64,000 bases of DNA from Nannocystis pusilla (GCF_026626665.1 NZ_JAPNKE010000002.1:3437168-3501167); one strand, 5' to 3'; counted from the first letter of the stretch, positions 8,702-17,155 are shown. Made by a program: numbers and translations. The notes: generated by a model from the sequence alone, not told the origin.

Positions 8702-9724
8702 ATGCCTCCCGTGCGCGACCCGCGGGTGCTCACGGCTGGCCTGGCGGCCGCGCTCGCCTGCGGTGAGCCGTCGCCTGTCGCGGAGCCCGAGGACGATGCG
8801 CCGGCATCGACCTCGCGCGCCGCCCCGCCGCTCGCCCACCTCGATCCGCTCGGCCCCCGCGATCTCGACCTCACGCGCGGGTCCTCGCTGCCGTTCCGCC
8901 CGGCCGTCCACCGCGAGCCGATCGACCCCCGCGACCGCGACCTTCTGGCGCGCTGGCCCTCGCTCGCGCACTACCCCCGCGTCCCGCAGGTGCTCGCCGC
9001 GGGCCTGCGCGCGCGCGAACCTGCCGCGATCTTCCGCGGCCTCGAGCTCGCCTTCGAGCCCGATCGCTGGGCCGAGATCGACGCCTGGGAGCGCCTCGGC
9101 CACATCCGCCTCGACGAACCCGCCGGCTTCTGCCGCACCGACGCCGGCCGCCCCGTTCAGCTGTCCCCGGGGACATACGACCTCGGCTGCCTCGGCGGCT
9201 TCCTCGAGGGCGTTCGCCTGCTGTGGTTGCCGCGGATCGAGCTCGCCGACCTCGTGCCCTGCGACCCGCCCGGCGGCTTCGAGTCGTGCCAGGACGGCGC
9301 TCACGCCGGCCGTGCCGCCCTCCTGCAGATAGCGGCCCGCCTGCCCGCCGAAGCCCTCCCGCACGGCCTCGAGCTGCTCGACCTGCGCCTCGGCGAGCTC
9401 GCACCCGACGCTCTGATCGCCGCCCTCGTCCCCGACGCGCTCCACCTCTGCAGCGTCTCGCACCGCGCTCGCGCCCGCGGCGGCGAGCGCATGTACCATC
9501 ACATGATGATCGTCGACCCCGCCCGCGATCACCTCGGCCGCGTGCGCGTGTTCGACACCACCGGCGCCGCCGGCGTCGCCTGGCGGTCGATGCGACCCGA
9601 GCGCCTGCACGCCTACGCGCGCCGCCTCCTGGCCCGCCACGACACCTTCCGCTACGACCCCGAGACCGCCCGGCTCGCCTGCCTGCCCGTGCGCCCGCCG
9701 GCCGGCGAAATCACAGGTCCGTGA
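8702..9724 (+). CDS. hypothetical lipoprotein
   Basis: A 340-aa ORF whose N-terminus ends in LAAALAC (lipobox-like). It is read in Pro/Ala-rich, high-GC codon style. No recognisable domain. The start codon is uncertain. Confidence 0.45.
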   Translation: MPPVRDPRVLTAGLAAALACGEPSPVAEPEDDAPASTSRAAPPLAHLDPLGPRDLDLTRGSSLPFRPAVHREPIDPRDRDLLARWPSLAHYPRVPQVLAAGLRAREPAAIFRGLELAFEPDRWAEIDAWERLGHIRLDEPAGFCRTDAGRPVQLSPGTYDLGCLGGFLEGVRLLWLPRIELADLVPCDPPGGFESCQDGAHAGRAALLQIAARLPAEALPHGLELLDLRLGELAPDALIAALVPDALHLCSVSHRARARGGERMYHHMMIVDPARDHLGRVRVFDTTGAAGVAWRSMRPERLHAYARRLLARHDTFRYDPETARLACLPVRPPAGEITGP

Positions 9725-9735
9725 GGACAGGTCCC

Positions 9736-10320
9736 ATGCGCCAGGTACGAAAGTACATCCTCCGCCTGCTCGCCCTCCTGTGCGTCTGGGGCCTCGTTCA
9801 CCTGGTCATCGTCGCCGTCGACGGCTGCACCGACGAGGCTCGCCCCGCCGACGTCGCGGTCGTCCTCGGCAACCACGTCAGCCCCGCGGGCGAGCCCTCG
9901 CGCCGTCTTCAGCTGCGCCTCGACCGCGCCGCCGCCCTGTACGCCGCCGGCCTCGCCCCACGCATCATCGTCAGCGGCGGCCGGGATCCCGGCAGCCCGC
10001 ACGAGGCCGACGTCATGCGCGACTACCTGGTCGCTCGCGGCGTCCCGGCCGAGCGGATCGCCGTCGACCGCGGCGGCGTCAACACTCACGCCACGGCCCG
10101 CTTCGTCGCCGCCGACCTGCGCGCCCGCGGCGAGCGCTCCGCCATCGCCGTCAGCCAGTACTACCACGTCACCCGCACCAAGCTGGCGCTGCGCCGCTTC
10201 GGCGTCGAGGCCACCGGCGCCCACGCCGACCTCGAGCTCGAGCTGCGCGAGCCGTGGTCGCTGCTGCGCGAGGTCGTCGGCTTCTACGCCTACCTGTTCA
10301 AGGACTACCGCCTCGAATGA
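9736..10320 (+). CDS. YdcF/DUF218 (SanA/ElyC-like) family protein with N-terminal TM helix
   Basis: MRQVRKYILRLLALLCVWGLVHLVIV forms a TM helix. Conserved DUF218-like segments follow: AVVLGNHV...RLDRAAALYAAGLAPRIIVSGG and AVSQYYHVTRT. The ATG at 9736 was verified. Confidence 0.7.
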   Translation: MRQVRKYILRLLALLCVWGLVHLVIVAVDGCTDEARPADVAVVLGNHVSPAGEPSRRLQLRLDRAAALYAAGLAPRIIVSGGRDPGSPHEADVMRDYLVARGVPAERIAVDRGGVNTHATARFVAADLRARGERSAIAVSQYYHVTRTKLALRRFGVEATGAHADLELELREPWSLLREVVGFYAYLFKDYRLE

Positions 10321-10365
10321 TCGAAGAGGACATGTCCGCAAGAACATGCCCTCTCGAACAGCCTG
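10321..10365. repeat. 14-bp-period GGACATGYCC repeat array (3 units) between convergent genes
   Basis: tcgaagaGGACATGTCC gcaa GAACATGCCC tctc GAACAGCC. Confidence 0.65.
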
Positions 10366-10377
10366 CTCCGCCGTGGC

Positions 10378-11466
10378 TCAGAACTCGTCGAGGCCCTGGC
10401 CGAGCTCGACCCCGAGCGCTTCCTGGGCGGCGGTCGGGCACGGCGACCCGAAGCGCGACTCGTAGCGGGCCGTGAACTCGGCGTTGGCGACCATCGCCTG
10501 GTCGTCGGTCTGCAGCTCGGGGAGCAGCCCGCGGACCGCGAACACCTCGATCTCGCCGACGCTGCGGGTCACCGTCGTCTGCAGGAACTCGAGCGAGAAG
10601 AACGGCTCGATGAGCTGACGGACCGCCCCGGACACGCACACCGAGTCGGGCTGGCCGACGCGCTCGACGTGGCTGGCGACGCTGACGGTGTCGCCCCACA
10701 GGTCGTAGACGGGCTTCTTCGAGCCGAGCACGCCGGAGATGCAGGGGCCCGAGTGGAGGCCGATGCGGAAGCTCCAGTCCCACTCGTCGACGATCGGCGT
10801 CAGCCCCGACGCCACCACCTGGGCGCAGCGCAGCGCCGCGAACGTCGCGTCGACGGCGTGCGACAGGCGGCGGTGGGGGATGCCCGAGACCGCCACGTAC
10901 GTGTCGCCGGCGGTGCGCAGCTTCTCGACCCCGAACGCCGACGTGATCTGGTCGAAGGCCGAGAAGAAGAAGTCGAGCTGCTTGAGGCAGGTGACGGGAT
11001 CGACGCGGGCGGCCAGGCGCGAGAACTGGACCGCGTCGATGAACATCACCGTCGACTCGCGGTAGGCCTTGGGCTGGAGCCGCTCGCCGAGCGGCGCCGC
11101 CGACTCGCGCGGCAGCACCGCCAGCGCCAGGCTCTTGTCGAGCAGGGTCGCGGTCGCCAGCTGCGACGCCAGCGCCCGCGGCGAGCGGATGGCCACGCCC
11201 ACCGCCAGCACCCCGTCGGAGGGCTCCAAGGACAGGTCCCATGCGACAGGTCCTTCGGGCCAGGGATTCTCCGGCACCGCCTTGCCGCTGCTCTCGGCCA
11301 GGCTGCGCAGGAACGCCGGCGACGCGGCGCCGAACAGCGCGCCGAGGCTGGGCGCGCCGGGGCGGGCGGCCAGCCAGCGGGCCGCCGCCGGCGACGCCGG
11401 GGTCACCCTGCCGTCGGCATCGACGCGCAGCGCGATCGACTCCACCAGCTCGAGGATCGCCACCAT
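10378..11466 (-). CDS. class III adenylate/guanylate cyclase (CHD) with ~150-aa N-terminal sensor-like domain
   Basis: The cyclase homology domain reads STVMFIDAVQFSRLA...KLRTAGDTYVAVSGIP...RIGLHSGPCISGVLGSKKPVYDLWGDTVSVASHVE. It is the last gene of the operon and its start overlaps the upstream stop. Confidence 0.8.
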   Translation of the reverse strand: MVAILELVESIALRVDADGRVTPASPAAARWLAARPGAPSLGALFGAASPAFLRSLAESSGKAVPENPWPEGPVAWDLSLEPSDGVLAVGVAIRSPRALASQLATATLLDKSLALAVLPRESAAPLGERLQPKAYRESTVMFIDAVQFSRLAARVDPVTCLKQLDFFFSAFDQITSAFGVEKLRTAGDTYVAVSGIPHRRLSHAVDATFAALRCAQVVASGLTPIVDEWDWSFRIGLHSGPCISGVLGSKKPVYDLWGDTVSVASHVERVGQPDSVCVSGAVRQLIEPFFSLEFLQTTVTRSVGEIEVFAVRGLLPELQTDDQAMVANAEFTARYESRFGSPCPTAAQEALGVELGQGLDEF

Positions 11467-11467
11467 G

Positions 11468-11875
11468 TCAGAACTCTCGCACGTCCTCGAAGGTCGTCCG
11501 GGCGGCGATGGTCTCCTCGTCGAGGTTGAGCAGGATCGGCAGCGTCTCCTGCTGCCAGTCGTCCTCCTGCAGGCGGCGGACCAGCACCGGCCCGGGCAGC
11601 AGCAGGTAGACCAGCTCGACGATGTCCATGATCACGTAGAAGCCGTTGGAGTTGCAGAACTCGAGCTCGGTGAAGTCGAGCACGCTGCGCTGGATCTCCC
11701 GCTTCGGCAGGATCTCGCGCAGGTCCTGCAGCAGCGCCGACAGATAGCGATAGGGGTTGTCGATCCGGACCACGCCCGAGAACGTGAGGGAGAAGTTCCC
11801 CTCGTCCTCGCGGGCGACGCAGTGGAACACACTGACGCCGCCGTCCATGATCTCGCCGTAGGTGAGGACGTTCAT
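11468..11875 (-). CDS. DUF1987 / SiaC-like small protein (partner-switch target)
   Basis: The 135-aa product begins MNVLTYGEIMDGG. The segments NFSLTFSGVVRIDNPYRYL and VLDFTELEFCNSNGFYVIMDIVELV resemble the SiaC family, but this is from memory and no HMM was run. The ATG overlaps the upstream TGA (ATGA). Confidence 0.55.
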   Translation of the reverse strand: MNVLTYGEIMDGGVSVFHCVAREDEGNFSLTFSGVVRIDNPYRYLSALLQDLREILPKREIQRSVLDFTELEFCNSNGFYVIMDIVELVYLLLPGPVLVRRLQEDDWQQETLPILLNLDEETIAARTTFEDVREF

Positions 11876-12387
11876 TGCGCACCTCGCAAAGGAAACACCG
11901 CCTGCATCGTCAAGTTCTCGCCCGAGTACGTCGCGGACAAGCGGAAGCGGTTCTCGGACACCAGGCGGATGAGGCCGAGCCCCCCGCGCAGCCGCTGCAT
12001 GCGGCGGGCGCGGAGCGTGTCGGCGAACAGGCGCTTGGGGTCCGTCGCGGTCGTCAGCCGCTCGACGCGGTCCTTGACGTCCTGGTACTGCTCGAAGGTC
12101 GCCTTGTTGGTGACCTGGACCTGCAGCGCGTCGCCGTCGATGCGCAGGTCGACGCGCATCTGGCTGCCCGGATCGCTGACGTTGTCGATCACGTTCTGGA
12201 CCAGCTCGGTGATGACCACGTTGGCCTTCTTGCACAGCGCCTGCGGGTAGAACACCGTCAGCATCGCCAGCAGCGACTCGCCGACGGTCGTCGCCAGGTT
12301 GCCGCGCGCGTCGCCCATGGGCGCGACCGTCAGCGTCAGGCCGACGCTGGTCGTGATCGGTTCGTCGTCGAACTCGTGATCGCTCAC
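11872..12387 (-). CDS. HATPase_c serine protein kinase (SiaB/RsbW-like anti-sigma-regulator-type kinase)
   Basis: The GTG start is preceded by a GGAGG SD and overlaps the upstream stop (GTGA). HATPase boxes are VVITELVQNVIDN and GGLGLIRLV. Confidence 0.7.
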   Translation of the reverse strand: MSDHEFDDEPITTSVGLTLTVAPMGDARGNLATTVGESLLAMLTVFYPQALCKKANVVITELVQNVIDNVSDPGSQMRVDLRIDGDALQVQVTNKATFEQYQDVKDRVERLTTATDPKRLFADTLRARRMQRLRGGLGLIRLVSENRFRLSATYSGENLTMQAVFPLRGAQ

Positions 12388-13310
12388 GCCGCCCGCCTCC
12401 GCAGCACGATGAGGGTGATGTCGTCGGCGTCGACGCGACGGAACTGCCCGTAGTCGTCGAGGCACCGCTGGAGGATCTGATTGGCCGGCAGCTCCGCGTT
12501 GGTGCGCACGAGCTCGTGCAGCCGGCGAGTGCTGTAGTCGGCGCCCGCGCTGTCCTGCGCCTCGACCATGCCGTCCGTGTACAGCGCCAGCACGTCACCT
12601 GTCTCGAAGGGCAGCTCGTACTCGCTGTACGCGCGGCGGCGCAGGCCGATGAACGGGTCGCCCTTGTTGAACGTGTGGACCTCGCCGCCGCGGACCAGCA
12701 CCCCGTACCCGCCGCCGCACACGTAGCGGAACGTGCGCTCGCCGAACGCGACGAAGTTGACGGTGGCGTAGCGGCGGACCTCGCGGAGGAACCCGACGGT
12801 CGCGTTGTTGAGGTACTCGACGATGTCGCGCGGGCGCGACACCTGCTCCATCGTCTGGACCAGCTGGGCCTTGAGGTAGGCCATGATCAGCGCCGCCGAC
12901 ACCCCGTGGCCGGAGATGTCGAACACGCCGATCGCGTGGCTGCCGTCGCGCAGGCGATAGAAGTCGTAGTAGTCGCCGCCGACCTCGGTCATCTGCTTGT
13001 GGTAGACCGAGAACTCGAAGCGCGCGAGCATCTCCGGGTGGTCCTTCGGCAGCAGCGCGTGCTGGACCTGCTGGGCGATCTCGAGGTCCTGGCGGATGGT
13101 CTGGTAGGCGCGGGCCAGCTCGCGCTCCTGCTCGTCGAGCCGCTCGTACGCGGTGCGCAGGTTGTCGTTGGTCGCCTGCCAGTAGGCGGTGTCGCGCTCG
13201 ACCCGCTTGAGCAGGCCCTTGTACATCCAGAACAGCCGGCGCATGTCCTCGCGCGACAGCTCGGACAGGCGGTCGGGGTCTCGCCCCTCGAGGATCTCGT
13301 CGAGCGTCAT
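12384..13310 (-). CDS. PP2C-family (SpoIIE/RsbU/SiaA-like) Ser/Thr phosphatase with N-terminal coiled-coil
   Basis: PPM motifs are present: GGDYYDFY, GVFDISGHGVSAAL, LYTDGMVEA and ADDITLIVL. Confidence 0.8.
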   Translation of the reverse strand: MTLDEILEGRDPDRLSELSREDMRRLFWMYKGLLKRVERDTAYWQATNDNLRTAYERLDEQERELARAYQTIRQDLEIAQQVQHALLPKDHPEMLARFEFSVYHKQMTEVGGDYYDFYRLRDGSHAIGVFDISGHGVSAALIMAYLKAQLVQTMEQVSRPRDIVEYLNNATVGFLREVRRYATVNFVAFGERTFRYVCGGGYGVLVRGGEVHTFNKGDPFIGLRRRAYSEYELPFETGDVLALYTDGMVEAQDSAGADYSTRRLHELVRTNAELPANQILQRCLDDYGQFRRVDADDITLIVLRRRAA

Positions 13311-13311
13311 C

Positions 13312-13854
13312 TCAGTGGAACTCCACCACGAGCCGGTTGGGGTCGCCGTCGTTCGTCACGTCGACGTAGTAGAGGTCGCCGGGCGCCATCACCCCGCCGA
13401 TCAGCACGCCGCGCTCGATCGTCTTGTCGAACGGCGTGGACGAGCGGATCACGGCGTGGCCGCGCTCCGAGTCGAACTCGGCGAGGTCGAACGAGCCGAC
13501 CACCTCGCGCGGCCCGCGGATGACGCTGGCGATGCCGTGGCTGCCGGTCTGAAAGTGCAGGAAGTCGGCGCCGCGGTGGATGAGCGCCTTGCCGGGGCCG
13601 TGGTGGTACCACAACGTCATCATCTCGATGCCGAGCTTGAGCCGGATCGGCTCGACGTTGGCGTACGACTCGCCGACCATCCGCTCGATCTCCATCCACT
13701 TCGACAGCGGGAACCACCGCCCCATGTCGATGTCGGCCAGCAGCGCGGTGGCCCGCCTGCCGGCGACGATGTTGAGGTTGACGCACGCCTGGGCGAAGCC
13801 GCCCATGAGCGCCCCGTGGACCACCGGCTCGCTCGGCTCGCTCTCGTCGCTCAT
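13312..13854 (-). CDS. hypothetical cytosolic protein (possible sensor or accessory component of the partner-switch operon)
   Basis: The ATG is preceded by a GGGGAGG SD and overlaps the upstream TGA. The 180-aa product (MSDESEPSEPVVHGALMGGFAQACVNL...) has no recognisable domain. Confidence 0.45.
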   Translation of the reverse strand: MSDESEPSEPVVHGALMGGFAQACVNLNIVAGRRATALLADIDMGRWFPLSKWMEIERMVGESYANVEPIRLKLGIEMMTLWYHHGPGKALIHRGADFLHFQTGSHGIASVIRGPREVVGSFDLAEFDSERGHAVIRSSTPFDKTIERGVLIGGVMAPGDLYYVDVTNDGDPNRLVVEFH

Positions 13855-14945
13855 CCCGCCTCCCCTGCGAACGCGAACACCGCGATGATCGGCACGCCGC
13901 GGTACGACAGGCGCACGAGCCCGGAGCTGACCGAGGAGCGGCAGTACTCGGGCAGGTCGACGTCGAGGTCGATCGCCGGGTACGGCACGAAGCCCGACTT
14001 CTTCAGCCGCAGCAGCCACGACTCGAGCGTCTCGTGGCGCTCGGTGCGGAAGGCGTCGCTGGTGCCGAGGATGTCGCGGACCTCGCGGCCGAAGAAGCCC
14101 TCCTTGATGGCGAACTTCTCGTCGGGGGACGCGTCGCTGCGGTCGACCAGATCGAACACCGTGGCGAAGTGCTGCCAACAGTGGTGCATGCGCCGGGTGA
14201 GGTGCTCGGTGTCGTGGTCCGAGCTCGGCTCCACCAGCGTGAACACCCGCGGCCGCAGGGCCCGCAGCCGCCGCAGCAGCCGGGTGCGCGCGTCGCTGTC
14301 GGGCCCCGTGGTGTGGTGCAGCGTGTAGGCCGCGTTGATCGACAAGCTCCCCTCGGCGAGCGCCTCGAAGTGCGCGTAGTCGGCATCCTCGCAGACCTCG
14401 ATCAGCTTGACCAGCGGATAGATCTCGATGTCGAACGGCAGCTCGGCGCGGACCTCGTCGATCGCGGCCACGCCCTCGTTCAGGGCGGTGCGGTTCGGCT
14501 CGAGCGCGATCACGCGGAGGCGCTCGATCTTGCCGGGGTCGCGCGCGAGCGCCCGCAGCAGCGCGACGATCTGCAGGCCCTTGCCGATCCCGATCTCGAG
14601 CAGCGCCGGCGTGCTCGACTGCCGCATCGCGTGCACGAGGTACTGGTTGGCCAGCGCGTAGCCCTGCGGCACCGCCGGGATCGCCCGCTGCAGCAGCGTG
14701 AACAGGTCGATCTGCGGCCGCTTCTCGGCTTGCAGGTACAAGTTCCGCCCCGACAGCAGGTTGCGGTCGATCCGTCGCAACAGCGACTCGGCGACGATGT
14801 GGGACAACAGCGCGTCGCTCGGGACATCGACGTCGAGGGCGTCGAGGAGCTGGCTCGCTATCACCGTCTTGGCGACCTGCTCGCGATGCCGGCGAATGTC
14901 CTGGCACGCGGCCAAAATCAGCTTGTAGCGGTCCTCGTAGAGCAT
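13851..14945 (-). CDS. bacterial GRAS-family protein (Rossmann methyltransferase-like fold)
   Basis: GRAS-like blocks are LLEIGIGKGLQIVALLRALA...LRVIALEPN and GSLSINAAYTLHHT. This is the first gene of the minus-strand operon. Confidence 0.5.
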   Translation of the reverse strand: MLYEDRYKLILAACQDIRRHREQVAKTVIASQLLDALDVDVPSDALLSHIVAESLLRRIDRNLLSGRNLYLQAEKRPQIDLFTLLQRAIPAVPQGYALANQYLVHAMRQSSTPALLEIGIGKGLQIVALLRALARDPGKIERLRVIALEPNRTALNEGVAAIDEVRAELPFDIEIYPLVKLIEVCEDADYAHFEALAEGSLSINAAYTLHHTTGPDSDARTRLLRRLRALRPRVFTLVEPSSDHDTEHLTRRMHHCWQHFATVFDLVDRSDASPDEKFAIKEGFFGREVRDILGTSDAFRTERHETLESWLLRLKKSGFVPYPAIDLDVDLPEYCRSSVSSGLVRLSYRGVPIIAVFAFAGEAG

Positions 14946-15218
14946 GCGCCGCAGACTGAAGGTCACACAGGGGATCCGCCTTGGCAAGCTGATGCGCACC
15001 CGATCGTGGCCGAGAAGATTATCTCAGCCCTCGCGCGGAAACGCGCCGCGTAGCCTGGCGCAGGCCCCGTCGGCCTCTGTCTCAAAGACCACCCAGCGGC
15101 GCTACCGGACCGCGGGCCACTGCGCAGGTCGCGTGTGCGACGGACTGCATCTTGAGACATGGTCCGAAAACCATGACGCGGCGCGGCGAGCCCGGCGAAA
15201 GTGGCCCGAAAGCAGGCC

Positions 15219-15746
15219 TCAAGCGGCGGCGGCGCCGCCGGCCATCTGCACCTCTGCAGCGGCGCTCGCCAGCGATCGCAGCTCGAGCCCGACCTCGAAG
15301 CTCAGCGCGGTCGCACCGACGCGGCCGCGCTGGCTCTCGCGGTGGACCTCGACGGCGAGCGTCACGTGCGTCGCATTCGGTACTCTGCCGCTGCGGAAGC
15401 GCACCGTCGCGATCGCAGTCAGCGGCTCCCCCACCAGCACCTCACCGAAGCGCCGCACGCGACTGATGCTGCGCAGCGTCAGCGCGACGTCGCGGAACGG
15501 CTCGCTGTGGGCCAGGGCCGACAGCGCCCGACCGAACGCGACCGGCAGCGGACAAACTCGACCCCACGGCTCCGGCGCGCCGCCGCCGGACACGCTCCCG
15601 GTCGACAGCATCTCCTCTCCGCAACCCACTACCTGTCCCAAGAAGCTGGACTCTACATGCGCAGTCAGATCGGCCGGCTTCACCGTGAAGGTGGAAGTCG
15701 TCAAGACCGTTCCGACGCTGAGAGATCCGAGATCGTGTGCGAGCAT
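15219..15746 (-). CDS. hotdog-fold thioesterase-like protein
   Basis: Hotdog-like segments are TVLTTSTFTVKPADL and GEPLTAIATVRFRSGRVPNATHVTLAVEVH. A low-complexity middle segment may hide a compensating frame excursion. Confidence 0.4.
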   Translation of the reverse strand: MLAHDLGSLSVGTVLTTSTFTVKPADLTAHVESSFLGQVVGCGEEMLSTGSVSGGGAPEPWGRVCPLPVAFGRALSALAHSEPFRDVALTLRSISRVRRFGEVLVGEPLTAIATVRFRSGRVPNATHVTLAVEVHRESQRGRVGATALSFEVGLELRSLASAAAEVQMAGGAAAA

Positions 15747-15982
15747 GACGCGGCCTCCTGGGATTAGCGTGCCGCCCACTGCCGCGATTTGCACGCCAGA
15801 TCACGCGTAGCGGCGATGTGTGCGTCTTCCTCCGCCGTGGATCGCGAGCATCGCCGCAGATCCGGCGAATTTCTCGGCACTGGCGGCGATCGTGCGCATG
15901 ACCGCCTGCTTGCATCGAACGGCGAAATGATCTTCACACGCCTCTGCTGCCGCGAATTCGACGCGATCTCCAGCGCGATCTC

Positions 15983-16663
15983 TTGCGCGTGCAACAACGA
16001 CGGCGGTTCACACGACCTCTCCGTGTGCTCCTCGACTTCCTCGCGCCGCCGGTGTGCATCGCCTGTCGTCACCTGCTCCGGGCCCCGCCGGCCGGGGGCG
16101 TGCCGCCCCTGTGCAGCCGCTGCGCCCCCGAGCTCGCGCGGCTCGACCCCGCTGCGCGGCGCGTCGGCGACGTGGAGGCCTGCTTCCTTTATGACGGCCC
16201 GCTCGCCGCGGCCGTCCGGCGGCTCAAGTTCGTCGGCGAGCTCGAGCTCGCCGGGCCGCTGGGCCGGCTCCTCGCCCACGCGCCGGTGTGGCGCGAGGGC
16301 TGGGATCTCGTCGCGCCGGTGCCCTTGCACTGGCGCCGCGCCCTCGCCCGCGGCTTCAACCAGGCCGCCCTGCTGGCTCGCTGGGCCGCGCGCGAGCACC
16401 CGACCGGCGCCCGCCTCGAGCCGCGGCTCCTGCAGCGCACGCGCGCCACCACGCCGCAGAGCGAGCTCGACGGGCCGGCGCGCCGCGAGAACCTCGCCGG
16501 CGCGGTCGTCGTGCGAGCCGGGCGGTCGCTCGTCGGCCGGCGCGTCCTCGTGGTCGACGACGTGACCACCACCGGCGCCACCCTGACCGCCTGCCTCGCC
16601 GCCGTTCGGGCCGCAGGGGCCGCCCGCGCCGCCGGACTTGCCCTCCTGCGGTCCGCTTTGTAG
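15983..16663 (+). CDS. ComF-family phosphoribosyltransferase
   Basis: An N-terminal Cys cluster (CIACRHLL...CSRCAPEL) is followed by a PRTase motif VLVVDDVTTTGATL. The true start is probably a little downstream of 15983. Confidence 0.7.
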   Translation: MRVQQRRRFTRPLRVLLDFLAPPVCIACRHLLRAPPAGGVPPLCSRCAPELARLDPAARRVGDVEACFLYDGPLAAAVRRLKFVGELELAGPLGRLLAHAPVWREGWDLVAPVPLHWRRALARGFNQAALLARWAAREHPTGARLEPRLLQRTRATTPQSELDGPARRENLAGAVVVRAGRSLVGRRVLVVDDVTTTGATLTACLAAVRAAGAARAAGLALLRSAL

Positions 16664-16678
16664 CTTTCCACCCCCGCC

Positions 16679-17155
16679 GTGAAGAAGACCGACAAGACCG
16701 CGACGAAGGACGGCCACATCTTCGTCCAGAACCGCCGAGCCACCTTCGAGTACGAGGTCCTCGAGCGCTACGAGGCCGGCCTCGCGCTCATGGGCAGCGA
16801 GGTCAAGTCGATCCGCGACGGCCGCGCCAGCCTGGGCGAGTCGTACTGCCAGTTCCAGGGCGACCAGCTCTTCCTCTATCAATCGCACATCGGCGAGTAC
16901 ACGCAGGCGCACGACCGCAACCACCTGCCGCTGCGCCCGCGCAAGCTGCTGCTGCACCGCAAGGAGCTCGATCACCTGACCGACGCGGTCGATCAGGCCG
17001 GGCTCACGCTGATCCCTCTGGCCCTGCTGGCCCGCAACGGCCGGATCAAGCTCGAGCTGGCGCTGTGCCGCGGCAAGAAGACTTACGACAAGCGGGCCTC
17101 GATCAAGGAGCGCGAGCAGAAGCGCGAGATCGACAGGGCCATACGGGAGCGGTGA
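16679..17155 (+). CDS. smpB: SsrA-binding protein SmpB
   Basis: Full-length SmpB signature: GHIFVQNRRATFEYEVLERYEAGLALMGSEVKSIR...GRIKLELALCRGKKTYDKR. GTG start. Confidence 0.9.
   Translation: MKKTDKTATKDGHIFVQNRRATFEYEVLERYEAGLALMGSEVKSIRDGRASLGESYCQFQGDQLFLYQSHIGEYTQAHDRNHLPLRPRKLLLHRKELDHLTDAVDQAGLTLIPLALLARNGRIKLELALCRGKKTYDKRASIKEREQKREIDRAIRER

Follow-up and report, generated by a model that had tools for sequence, protein, structure and literature searches.

Introduction

Sigma factors, secretion and diguanylate cyclases are all known to come under partner-switch control. Where the target is a cyclase, as for SiaD, HsbD and BgrR, the phosphorylation state of a STAS-type protein controls the adjacent enzyme by direct binding (PMC8457831). 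Here we describe a six-gene cassette from Nannocystis pusilla in which a core of this type is followed by a class III cyclase. The cassette occupies positions 10378-14945 of a 64,000-nucleotide stretch (GCF_026626665.1 NZ_JAPNKE010000002.1:3437168-3501167), hereafter the window, and all coordinates refer to the whole stretch. Its genes encode, in order, a GRAS-family protein, a 180-aa protein, a PP2C phosphatase, a GHKL kinase-like protein, a 135-aa protein of STAS/SiaC fold and a protein with a cyclase-homology domain (CHD).

The closest characterised analogue of the cassette core is SiaABC of Pseudomonas aeruginosa, which together with SiaD shows the same order of phosphatase, kinase, STAS-like protein and nucleotide cyclase; the candidate phosphoserine of the cassette also falls at the structural position of SiaC T68. 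The two systems differ in the acceptor residue, probably a serine here and a threonine in SiaC; in the output, a Guanylate_cyc domain (125 bits) with no GGDEF domain, whereas SiaD is a GGDEF diguanylate cyclase; in the input, a soluble H-NOX-fold protein and a GRAS protein, whereas SiaA uses its own N-terminal sensor region; and in the degenerate catalytic residues of the window cyclase. The HptB-HsbR-HsbA/HsbD and BgrSTUWV/BgrR systems likewise combine a STAS-type partner with an adjacent second-messenger cyclase, but both have a canonical STAS protein, and the output of each is a diguanylate cyclase. Finally, slr1658 and slr1659 (NF047703 and NF047705; Pfam DUF6272) are adjacent genes in Synechocystis whose superfamily models are the top curated models for the kinase-like and 135-aa proteins, themselves encoded side by side in the cassette; the window proteins, however, score ~25-36 bits against a cutoff of 100 and thus fall short of membership. 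A literature search for functional studies of slr1658, slr1659 or DUF6272 found only incidental mentions. The literature covered, which did not include the 2012 study of bacterial GRAS proteins by Zhang, Iyer and Aravind, likewise gave no report of this cassette, of a class III cyclase gated by a partner switch, of the H-NOX-fold family described below, or of a bacterial GRAS protein in such an operon.

We conclude with considerable confidence that the cassette is a sensor-driven, partner-switch-type module. Taken as a whole, it is probably a conserved cytoplasmic signalling operon built on a partner-switch core, driven by the sensor and with the cyclase downstream as its effector. What is new here is a sensor-domain family and an unusual degenerate cyclase, in a partner-switch-type system. 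A conserved link to class III (cyclic AMP-type) cyclases would extend partner switches to a second major messenger.

Conservation of the six-gene cassette

The preliminary description, made from the sequence of the window, reported six co-directional genes on the minus strand, and all six open reading frames (ORFs) were found where it placed them. The overlaps it listed were also confirmed, as ATGA between the GRAS and 180-aa genes, GTGA between the PP2C and kinase-like genes, and ATGA between the kinase-like and 135-aa genes; the remaining two junctions are 1-nt gaps (TGAgATG and TGAcATG). Orthologs of each gene occur at 40-100% identity and in the same order in dozens of genomes, and the ratio of non-synonymous to synonymous substitution rates (dN/dS) within Nannocystis lies between 0.0 and 0.33 across the six. 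All six ORFs are real genes. In five named Nannocystis genomes the locus is 92-100% identical at the protein level.

One genome per species was scanned with the pair of motifs best conserved in the 135-aa protein, and the six window proteins were compared by tblastn with the 83 loci fetched, among which three architectures occur. The order GRAS-180aa-PP2C-kinase-STAS recurs in ~45 genomes, with a locus GC content of 41-72%, and the full set including the cyclase is found in ~30. These comprise all Nannocystis, several other metagenome-assembled genomes (MAGs) of Myxococcota and many MAGs labelled Spirochaetaceae/Spirochaetota. In nearly all of the ~30, the cyclase gene begins within ~70 nt of the STAS gene. 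The gene order that the preliminary description wished to see checked in relatives is therefore kept, as is its placement of a class III cyclase in the SiaD position. The linkage of the cyclase to the cassette is real and old, yet not obligatory.

The partner-switch-type core

The PP2C protein carries the metal-binding motifs GGDYYD, DISGHG, YTDG and DDIT of the PP2C/SpoIIE family, and its top match in the PDB is the PP2C domain of SiaA (6K4E, E 7.6e-17). Ahead of the catalytic domain lies a helical region of ~95 residues, to which we return below.

With 410 members at 60-95% identity, the family of the 135-aa protein is highly conserved. Its AlphaFold 2 model has a STAS-type fold (predicted local distance difference test score, 95.6), and in a Foldseek search SpoIIAA and SiaC rank about equal, with SiaC the best structural match. 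The serine within the invariant motif FCN-S-NGFY is kept in 24 of 25 sequences and is an aspartate in the remaining one. This residue, Ser76, caps the N-terminus of helix alpha2, the position taken by T68 in SiaC and by Ser58 in SpoIIAA-type proteins, so the protein has both a SiaC-type fold and a phosphorylatable residue where one would be expected. By sequence the family is more elusive: neither the window 135-aa protein nor the 180-aa protein has a Pfam match at E<=0.1, and PDB sequence searches with the 135-aa, 180-aa and kinase-like proteins, as single sequences and as profiles, gave chance-level matches only. The top curated model of the 135-aa protein is the slr1659 superfamily, which matches all 25 orthologs (best 2.5e-9), each below the cutoff; the window protein scores 25.2 bits. 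As a side observation, the 101-aa RefSeq protein of Nannocystis pusilla in our set (P0049), a public annotation of the 135-aa protein, covers 75% of it at 99% identity, which suggests that its start codon was mis-called.

The kinase-like protein of the window matches slr1658_superfam best (5.7e-9, 35.6 bits against a cutoff of 100). Its Pfam matches are weak, in the range ~2e-3 to 7e-3, and include DUF6272 (2e-3), HATPase_c (2.5e-3) and HATPase_c_2. Among 20 orthologs, sub-cutoff matches were found to DUF6272 and slr1658_superfam in 19 each (best 2.1e-13 for the latter), to HATPase_c_2 in 11 and to RsbW (NF003144) in six.

An H-NOX-fold sensor with a probable link to the phosphatase

The 180-aa protein, which the preliminary description left without a function but took, together with the GRAS protein, as a possible input, is an H-NOX-fold sensor domain, and the case for the upstream genes as input is strengthened accordingly. 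It has no sequence relative in Pfam, NCBIfam or the PDB, also when searched as a profile. Pfam searches that included HNOB gave no family at E<=10 for 18 orthologs; in the fusion proteins described below, residues 1-180 likewise matched no family. Searched for a proximal histidine, the family showed none that is conserved: histidine exceeds 65% only at the C-terminal residue (86%), and at position 100, in the helix in the αF position, it is present in 17 of 28 and 8 of 18 sequences in the two alignments. The heme-propionate motif YxSxR is absent, and the equivalent strand reads I-[HR]-S-T-T-P, equivalence here being taken from the order of secondary-structure elements and not from residue-level superposition. 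Both alignments have an invariant Cys24, Asn26, Thr140 and Glu147 and a nearly invariant Gln102. The protein therefore differs from bacterial H-NOX proteins and from the H-NOX domain of animal soluble guanylate cyclase in lacking an HNOB match, the conserved histidine and YxSxR, and also in that its putative immediate partner is a PP2C, with a phospho-switch standing between sensor and cyclase. If this arrangement is correct, it would be a bacterial H-NOX-to-cyclase coupling wired through protein phosphorylation.

A search of 1.84 billion representative sequences with the sensor profile returned 210 relatives (at 50% clustering), many of them with the domain at the N-terminus of long proteins. 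By Pfam, these fusions are PAS-HisKA-HATPase(-REC) histidine kinases and one Ser/Thr kinase (Pkinase, P0219). Because the domain is fused N-terminally to histidine kinases and to a Ser/Thr kinase, we regard the 180-aa family as a genuine sensor domain; it defines a widespread family with the H-NOX fold and without the heme ligands. In 59 of 90 fusions, a segment a median of 27 residues past the sensor matches the profile of the N-terminal helical region of the cassette PP2C. Among 6,673 control ORFs, the same profile gave 79 matches in cassette PP2Cs and none outside them. This relation between split and fused forms is the strongest evidence that the sensor acts on the PP2C.

The GRAS protein has only plant GRAS structures as relatives in the PDB (best E 1.9e-15) and scores 123 bits on Pfam PF03514, against a cutoff of 27. 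Its domain is Rossmann methyltransferase-like with an intact S-adenosylmethionine-binding signature of GxGxG and acidic-Pro type (EIGIGKG / ALEP), and the motifs G.G.Q and [DE]P are kept in 21 orthologs. In all GRAS-type cassettes the gene immediately precedes that of the sensor, and the protein possibly makes or modifies the ligand of the sensor. We know of no biological context for bacterial GRAS proteins, which are relatives of the plant GRAS regulators of hormone signalling; here the protein is locked to a sensor and phospho-switch operon, which, if the link holds, would be the first functional context for a bacterial member.

Two Myxococcota MAGs have a second, more divergent GRAS gene (33-34% identity), ~2.5 kb beyond the downstream end of the cassette (L048:10729-11799 and L050:10718-11827). 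We set it aside: it lies among unrelated genes, beside an ADP-ribosylglycohydrolase-like ORF and not a sensor gene.

A class III cyclase at the proposed output

The last protein of the cassette has a weakly PAS-like N-terminal domain (residues 1 to ~100), a helical linker, a CHD and a conserved C-terminal tail. The CHD matches Pfam PF00211 over residues 131-295, and its best PDB relatives are mammalian and mycobacterial adenylate cyclases. The identity of the N-terminal domain as a PAS domain is only suggestive: one of 18 orthologs matches Pfam PAS (0.0046), and the profile matches the PAS domain of ThkA at E 0.034.

This N-terminal domain had been put forward as a docking site for the SiaC-like protein, a proposal that we abandon. 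Eight syntenic cyclases of ~280 aa lack the domain entirely, so it cannot be a conserved docking site. By analogy with SiaC on the SiaD stalk, the helix preceding the CHD and the conserved C-terminal tail would be better candidates.

A model for the operon

From the gene content and order, folds, motifs, synteny and domain fusions set out above, we infer the following chain of contacts, phosphorylation, ligand and direction of regulation. The H-NOX-fold protein would sense a small ligand, probably not through canonical His-ligated heme, and the always-adjacent GRAS methyltransferase-like enzyme would possibly make or modify that ligand. The sensor would then act on the N-terminal helical region of the PP2C, and the PP2C and the GHKL kinase-like protein would together set the phosphorylation state of Ser76 on the STAS protein. 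In its unphosphorylated form, the STAS protein would bind an effector, which by analogy with SiaC and SiaD would be the downstream class III cyclase, the contact probably being made through the pre-CHD helix or the C-terminal tail. That the cyclase is the direct target of the switch is a proposition we hold at even chances. Where the cyclase is a canonical adenylate cyclase, as in most of the genomes, the switch would gate cyclic AMP (cAMP).

In its fullest form the model is tentative and less likely than not. It describes a previously unreported, multi-phylum cassette in which a non-heme H-NOX-fold sensor and a ligand-making or ligand-modifying GRAS protein signal to a PP2C through a signalling helix, and from there to a SiaC-type switch that gates a class III adenylate cyclase, with the Nannocystis cyclase a C1-like half or a pseudo-cyclase.

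Discussion

Several findings weigh against the model, and we take them here together with the alternatives on which they bear. On the input side, the search for GRAS genes beside the fused sensor-kinase genes found none; the pairing of GRAS protein and sensor is peculiar to this cassette, and any functional meaning of it is conjectural. Within the core, the family alignment of the kinase-like protein conserves the N-box TELVQNVIDN (E61, N65) and the G2 box GGLGLIRL, but the Asp of the G1 box is replaced by a near-invariant Asn94 and GxG is missing. In GHKL proteins this Asp contacts adenine N6. The substitution could reflect an altered nucleotide preference or a non-catalytic binding role. With the N-box and G2 box kept and the G1 Asp changed to Asn, kinase activity seems likely, not assured. 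A profile of the family searched against the PDB found neither SiaB nor SpoIIAB. Of the HATPase Ser kinase named in the preliminary description, the N-box, the G2 box and a weak HATPase_c match remain, but the G1 Asp is absent and the best score is on slr1658, not SiaB.

The remaining points concern the cyclase. The alternative that survives best is that the Nannocystis protein is a dead pseudo-cyclase, the operon making neither cAMP nor cyclic GMP and the protein being kept as a scaffold, as a receptor for nucleotides or to act as a decoy for the switch; we give this somewhat less than an even chance. A residue-by-residue alignment to the C1 and C2 domains of adenylate cyclase 5 (AC5) places D144-R184-D188-D255-S262-H266 at the catalytic hexad, against the canonical D-K-D-D-N-R. 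The preliminary description had relied on a metal-binding Asp pair and on substrate-specifying residues. The first stands, as D144 (FIDAV) and D188 (TAGDTY) align with the metal Asp residues of AC5 C1. For the second the picture is mixed: the substrate Asp, Asp255, is kept, but Lys is replaced by Arg184, and the R184/D255 pair follows neither the adenylate cyclase consensus (Lys/Asp, for ATP) nor that of guanylate cyclases (Glu/Cys-type, for GTP). The transition-state Asn and Arg are Ser262 and His266 in the window and in five other Nannocystis genomes, leaving the window cyclase without the canonical Lys, Asn and Arg, three of its six catalytic positions. Among 30 syntenic cyclases, D-K-D-D-N-R, the usual signature of ATP specificity, is found in 19 and the Lys in 22, whereas D-R-D-D-S-H is shared by the window and the five Nannocystis genomes. 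Two more distant Nannocystis MAGs read D-T-D-D-S-H and D-K-D-D-S-Q, and these two and one other Myxococcota MAG have Ser followed by His or Gln at the last two positions. For the majority of class III enzymes, the Asn-Arg pair is considered to stabilise the transition state (PMC4215837, citing Yan et al. 1997), and a search of the 64-kb window for a second CHD as complement found none.

Against a dead enzyme stand the retained metal Asp pair and substrate Asp, and the dN/dS of the Nannocystis CHD (0.05-0.16), which is as low as that of the PP2C and similar to that of the GRAS gene, and from which we take the cyclase to be functional in some sense. Ma1120 is an active adenylate cyclase even though Ala replaces the Asn. 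Moreover, retention of the metal Asp residues with loss of Asn and Arg is the pattern of the mammalian C1 domain, active in heterodimers, and of the alpha-type half-site of soluble guanylate cyclase; the window CHD even shares with AC5 C1 a His at the Arg position (ANHME against ASHVE). Unlike mammalian C1, the window protein is bacterial, has a single CHD and has no C2-like partner in the window, but a partner could be encoded elsewhere, related Nannocystis assemblies being ~12-13 Mb. Most likely the Nannocystis cyclase has weak activity, is the C1-like half of an enzyme that needs a partner, or acts as a non-catalytic scaffold or pseudo-cyclase, and it is doubtful that the window protein yields meaningful cyclic nucleotide as a homodimer. 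The earlier suggestion that the switch may gate a different second messenger accordingly is plausible for most syntenic cyclases, with their canonical residues, and doubtful for the window copy with its three changes. Either way, a natural single-domain bacterial CHD that resembles a mammalian C1 half-site and is under purifying selection should be useful for understanding the origins of pseudo-cyclases and heterodimeric cyclases.

A second alternative leaves the cyclase aside: the core would act on an unlinked target (for example, a sigma factor, a different enzyme or a pathway based on a Ser/Thr kinase), and the cyclase would be a frequent co-transcribed passenger or act in parallel or upstream. 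The five-gene core occurs without a cyclase in ~14 assessable Myxococcota-type genomes, roughly one in three of the cassettes that otherwise agree, and the ~32 variants from Sorangium, Polyangium and Chondromyces all lack one, although PP2C, kinase and STAS protein are still kept. In this variant (L001 and L014-L047; Chondromyces, Polyangium, Sorangium and Byssovorax), a dCache-HAMP-SpoIIE (PP2C) protein is followed by a 305-aa protein without a Pfam match, the PP2C, the kinase, the 135-aa protein and then a MarR-type gene. GRAS, H-NOX-fold sensor and cyclase are all missing, no sensor homolog being found in Sorangium/Polyangium-type loci even by profile at E<=1; the PP2C still has the same N-terminal helix profile. 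Given its absence from the ~14 GRAS-type cassettes and from all ~32 Polyangia-type variants, the cyclase cannot be a universal or the only target. An unlinked target would also fit a ~750-aa Pkinase gene that adjoins the cassette in 13 Myxococcota loci, and the far stronger conservation of the STAS protein (60-100% identity) than of the cyclase (~30-40% between clades), as expected if the former has other constrained partners. What makes this alternative unlikely to us is that a cyclase directly downstream in ~30 genomes, of 41-72% GC and differing labelled phyla, is hard to explain without functional coupling, and that each of the cyclases SiaD, HsbD and BgrR is encoded in an operon and is bound by a STAS-like partner.

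We consider it improbable that the cassette is a true set of SiaABCD orthologs with a swapped output domain. The four genes come in the same order, the closest proteins of solved structure are SiaA and SiaC, and half of the kinase orthologs (10 of 20, sub-cutoff, best 2.6e-5) touch the SiaB family model, SiaB_fam_kinase (NF038262). All three core proteins nevertheless fail the curated thresholds. The 135-aa protein, earlier assigned to DUF1987, does not reach the SiaC/DUF1987 model PF09345 (E 0.13, 12.3 bits against a cutoff of 24.5), an assignment we withdraw; of its 25 orthologs, 14 give sub-threshold matches (best 7.9e-4), no better than to STAS_2. On the SiaA equivalog model (NF038263) the PP2C scores 73.8 bits against a cutoff of 700, in an alignment confined to positions 351-656 of 658, the C-terminal helix and PP2C part. 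The window kinase-like protein has no match to NF038262 at E<=0.01. The slr1658 and slr1659 superfamilies score best, the PP2C lacks the long N-terminal region of SiaA, and the input is a separate H-NOX-fold protein with GRAS. With those thresholds failed, the statement that the core works like SiaABC is well supported, but the statement that it is SiaABC is not. Of the earlier equation of the middle three genes with SiaABC, the partner-switch character and the closeness of the PP2C to that of SiaA endure.

Lastly, we reject an anti-phage, Pycsar-like cyclase system as very improbable: the cyclase has a weak PADLOC match to PycC (E 5.9e-7, 26.9 bits), but this is far below its 125 bits as a general CHD, no other cassette protein matches PADLOC, there is no effector gene, and the chromosomal synteny is stable across the genus and under purifying selection.

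Locus layout and neighbouring genes

Table 1. Genes of the Nannocystis pusilla cassette in the window.
Product	Position	Strand	Pfam support
GRAS-family protein, bacterial, 364 aa; first cassette gene	13851-14945	-	GRAS 1.4e-35, 123 bits
H-NOX-fold sensor protein, 180 aa; family without a Pfam model	13312-13854	-	
PP2C (SpoIIE-type) Ser/Thr phosphatase, 308 aa	12384-13310	-	SpoIIE 8.7e-28, 98 bits
Kinase-like protein of the GHKL superfamily, anti-sigma type, 171 aa; starts at a GTG that overlaps the stop codon of PP2C	11872-12387	-	weak HATPase_c/HATPase_c_2/DUF6272
STAS/SiaC-fold phospho-acceptor candidate, 135 aa; candidate site Ser76 in FCN-S-NGFY	11468-11875	-	
Class III cyclase-homology-domain (CHD) protein, 362 aa	10378-11466	-	Guanylate_cyc 3.3e-36, 125 bits

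The six genes (Table 1) form the unit, because the next gene downstream of the cyclase is convergent and the codirectional ORF upstream of GRAS is not a regular companion. This ORF, of 191 aa (15219-15794, minus strand), lies ~270 nt from the GRAS gene; it recurs in two Nannocystis loci (L004 and L012) and is absent from the other cassette loci compared. A scan of 10000-15400 for promoters and terminators found none, and at the ~70% GC of the genome such a scan is uninformative. The flanking genes at 15983-16663, 16679-17155 and ~9650-10320, all on the plus strand, look like housekeeping genes, which from their sequences we take to resemble a ComF-like phosphoribosyltransferase, SmpB and a DUF218/YdcF-like protein; the last of these (~9650-10320) converges on the cyclase gene.

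Elsewhere, the cassette has recurrent neighbours. The Ser/Thr Pkinase gene of the 13 Myxococcota-type loci (L002, L044, L048, L049, L050, L052, L056, L064, L074, L075, L077, L078 and L079) encodes ~740-810 aa and lies upstream or downstream, in either orientation. In 12 Spirochaetaceae/Spirochaetota-labelled loci (L053, L054, L055, L058, L059, L061, L065, L066, L067, L068, L070 and L082), a PilZ-like protein of ~125-156 aa follows the cassette, downstream of the cyclase at ~8.4-9.9 kb in locus coordinates. It carries the motifs RxxxR and DxSxxG (for example, RVYPRIESEW...DISLSGA). In one locus the cyclase carries a PilZ-like domain as a C-terminal fusion (L073:443-1705); L065 lacks a cyclase, and there the PilZ-like gene comes after the 135-aa gene. 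To find a c-di-GMP-type receptor beside an adenylate-type cyclase is unexpected; the window has no such protein.

The assembly of Nannocystis exedens DSM 71 shows the cassette in three places, each at the end of a contig or close to it (L007, L008 and L010; contigs utg0 and utg4). The contig end truncates two of the three (L008 and L010), and L010 has frameshift-like breaks. These are most likely overlapping contig ends and not paralogous copies.

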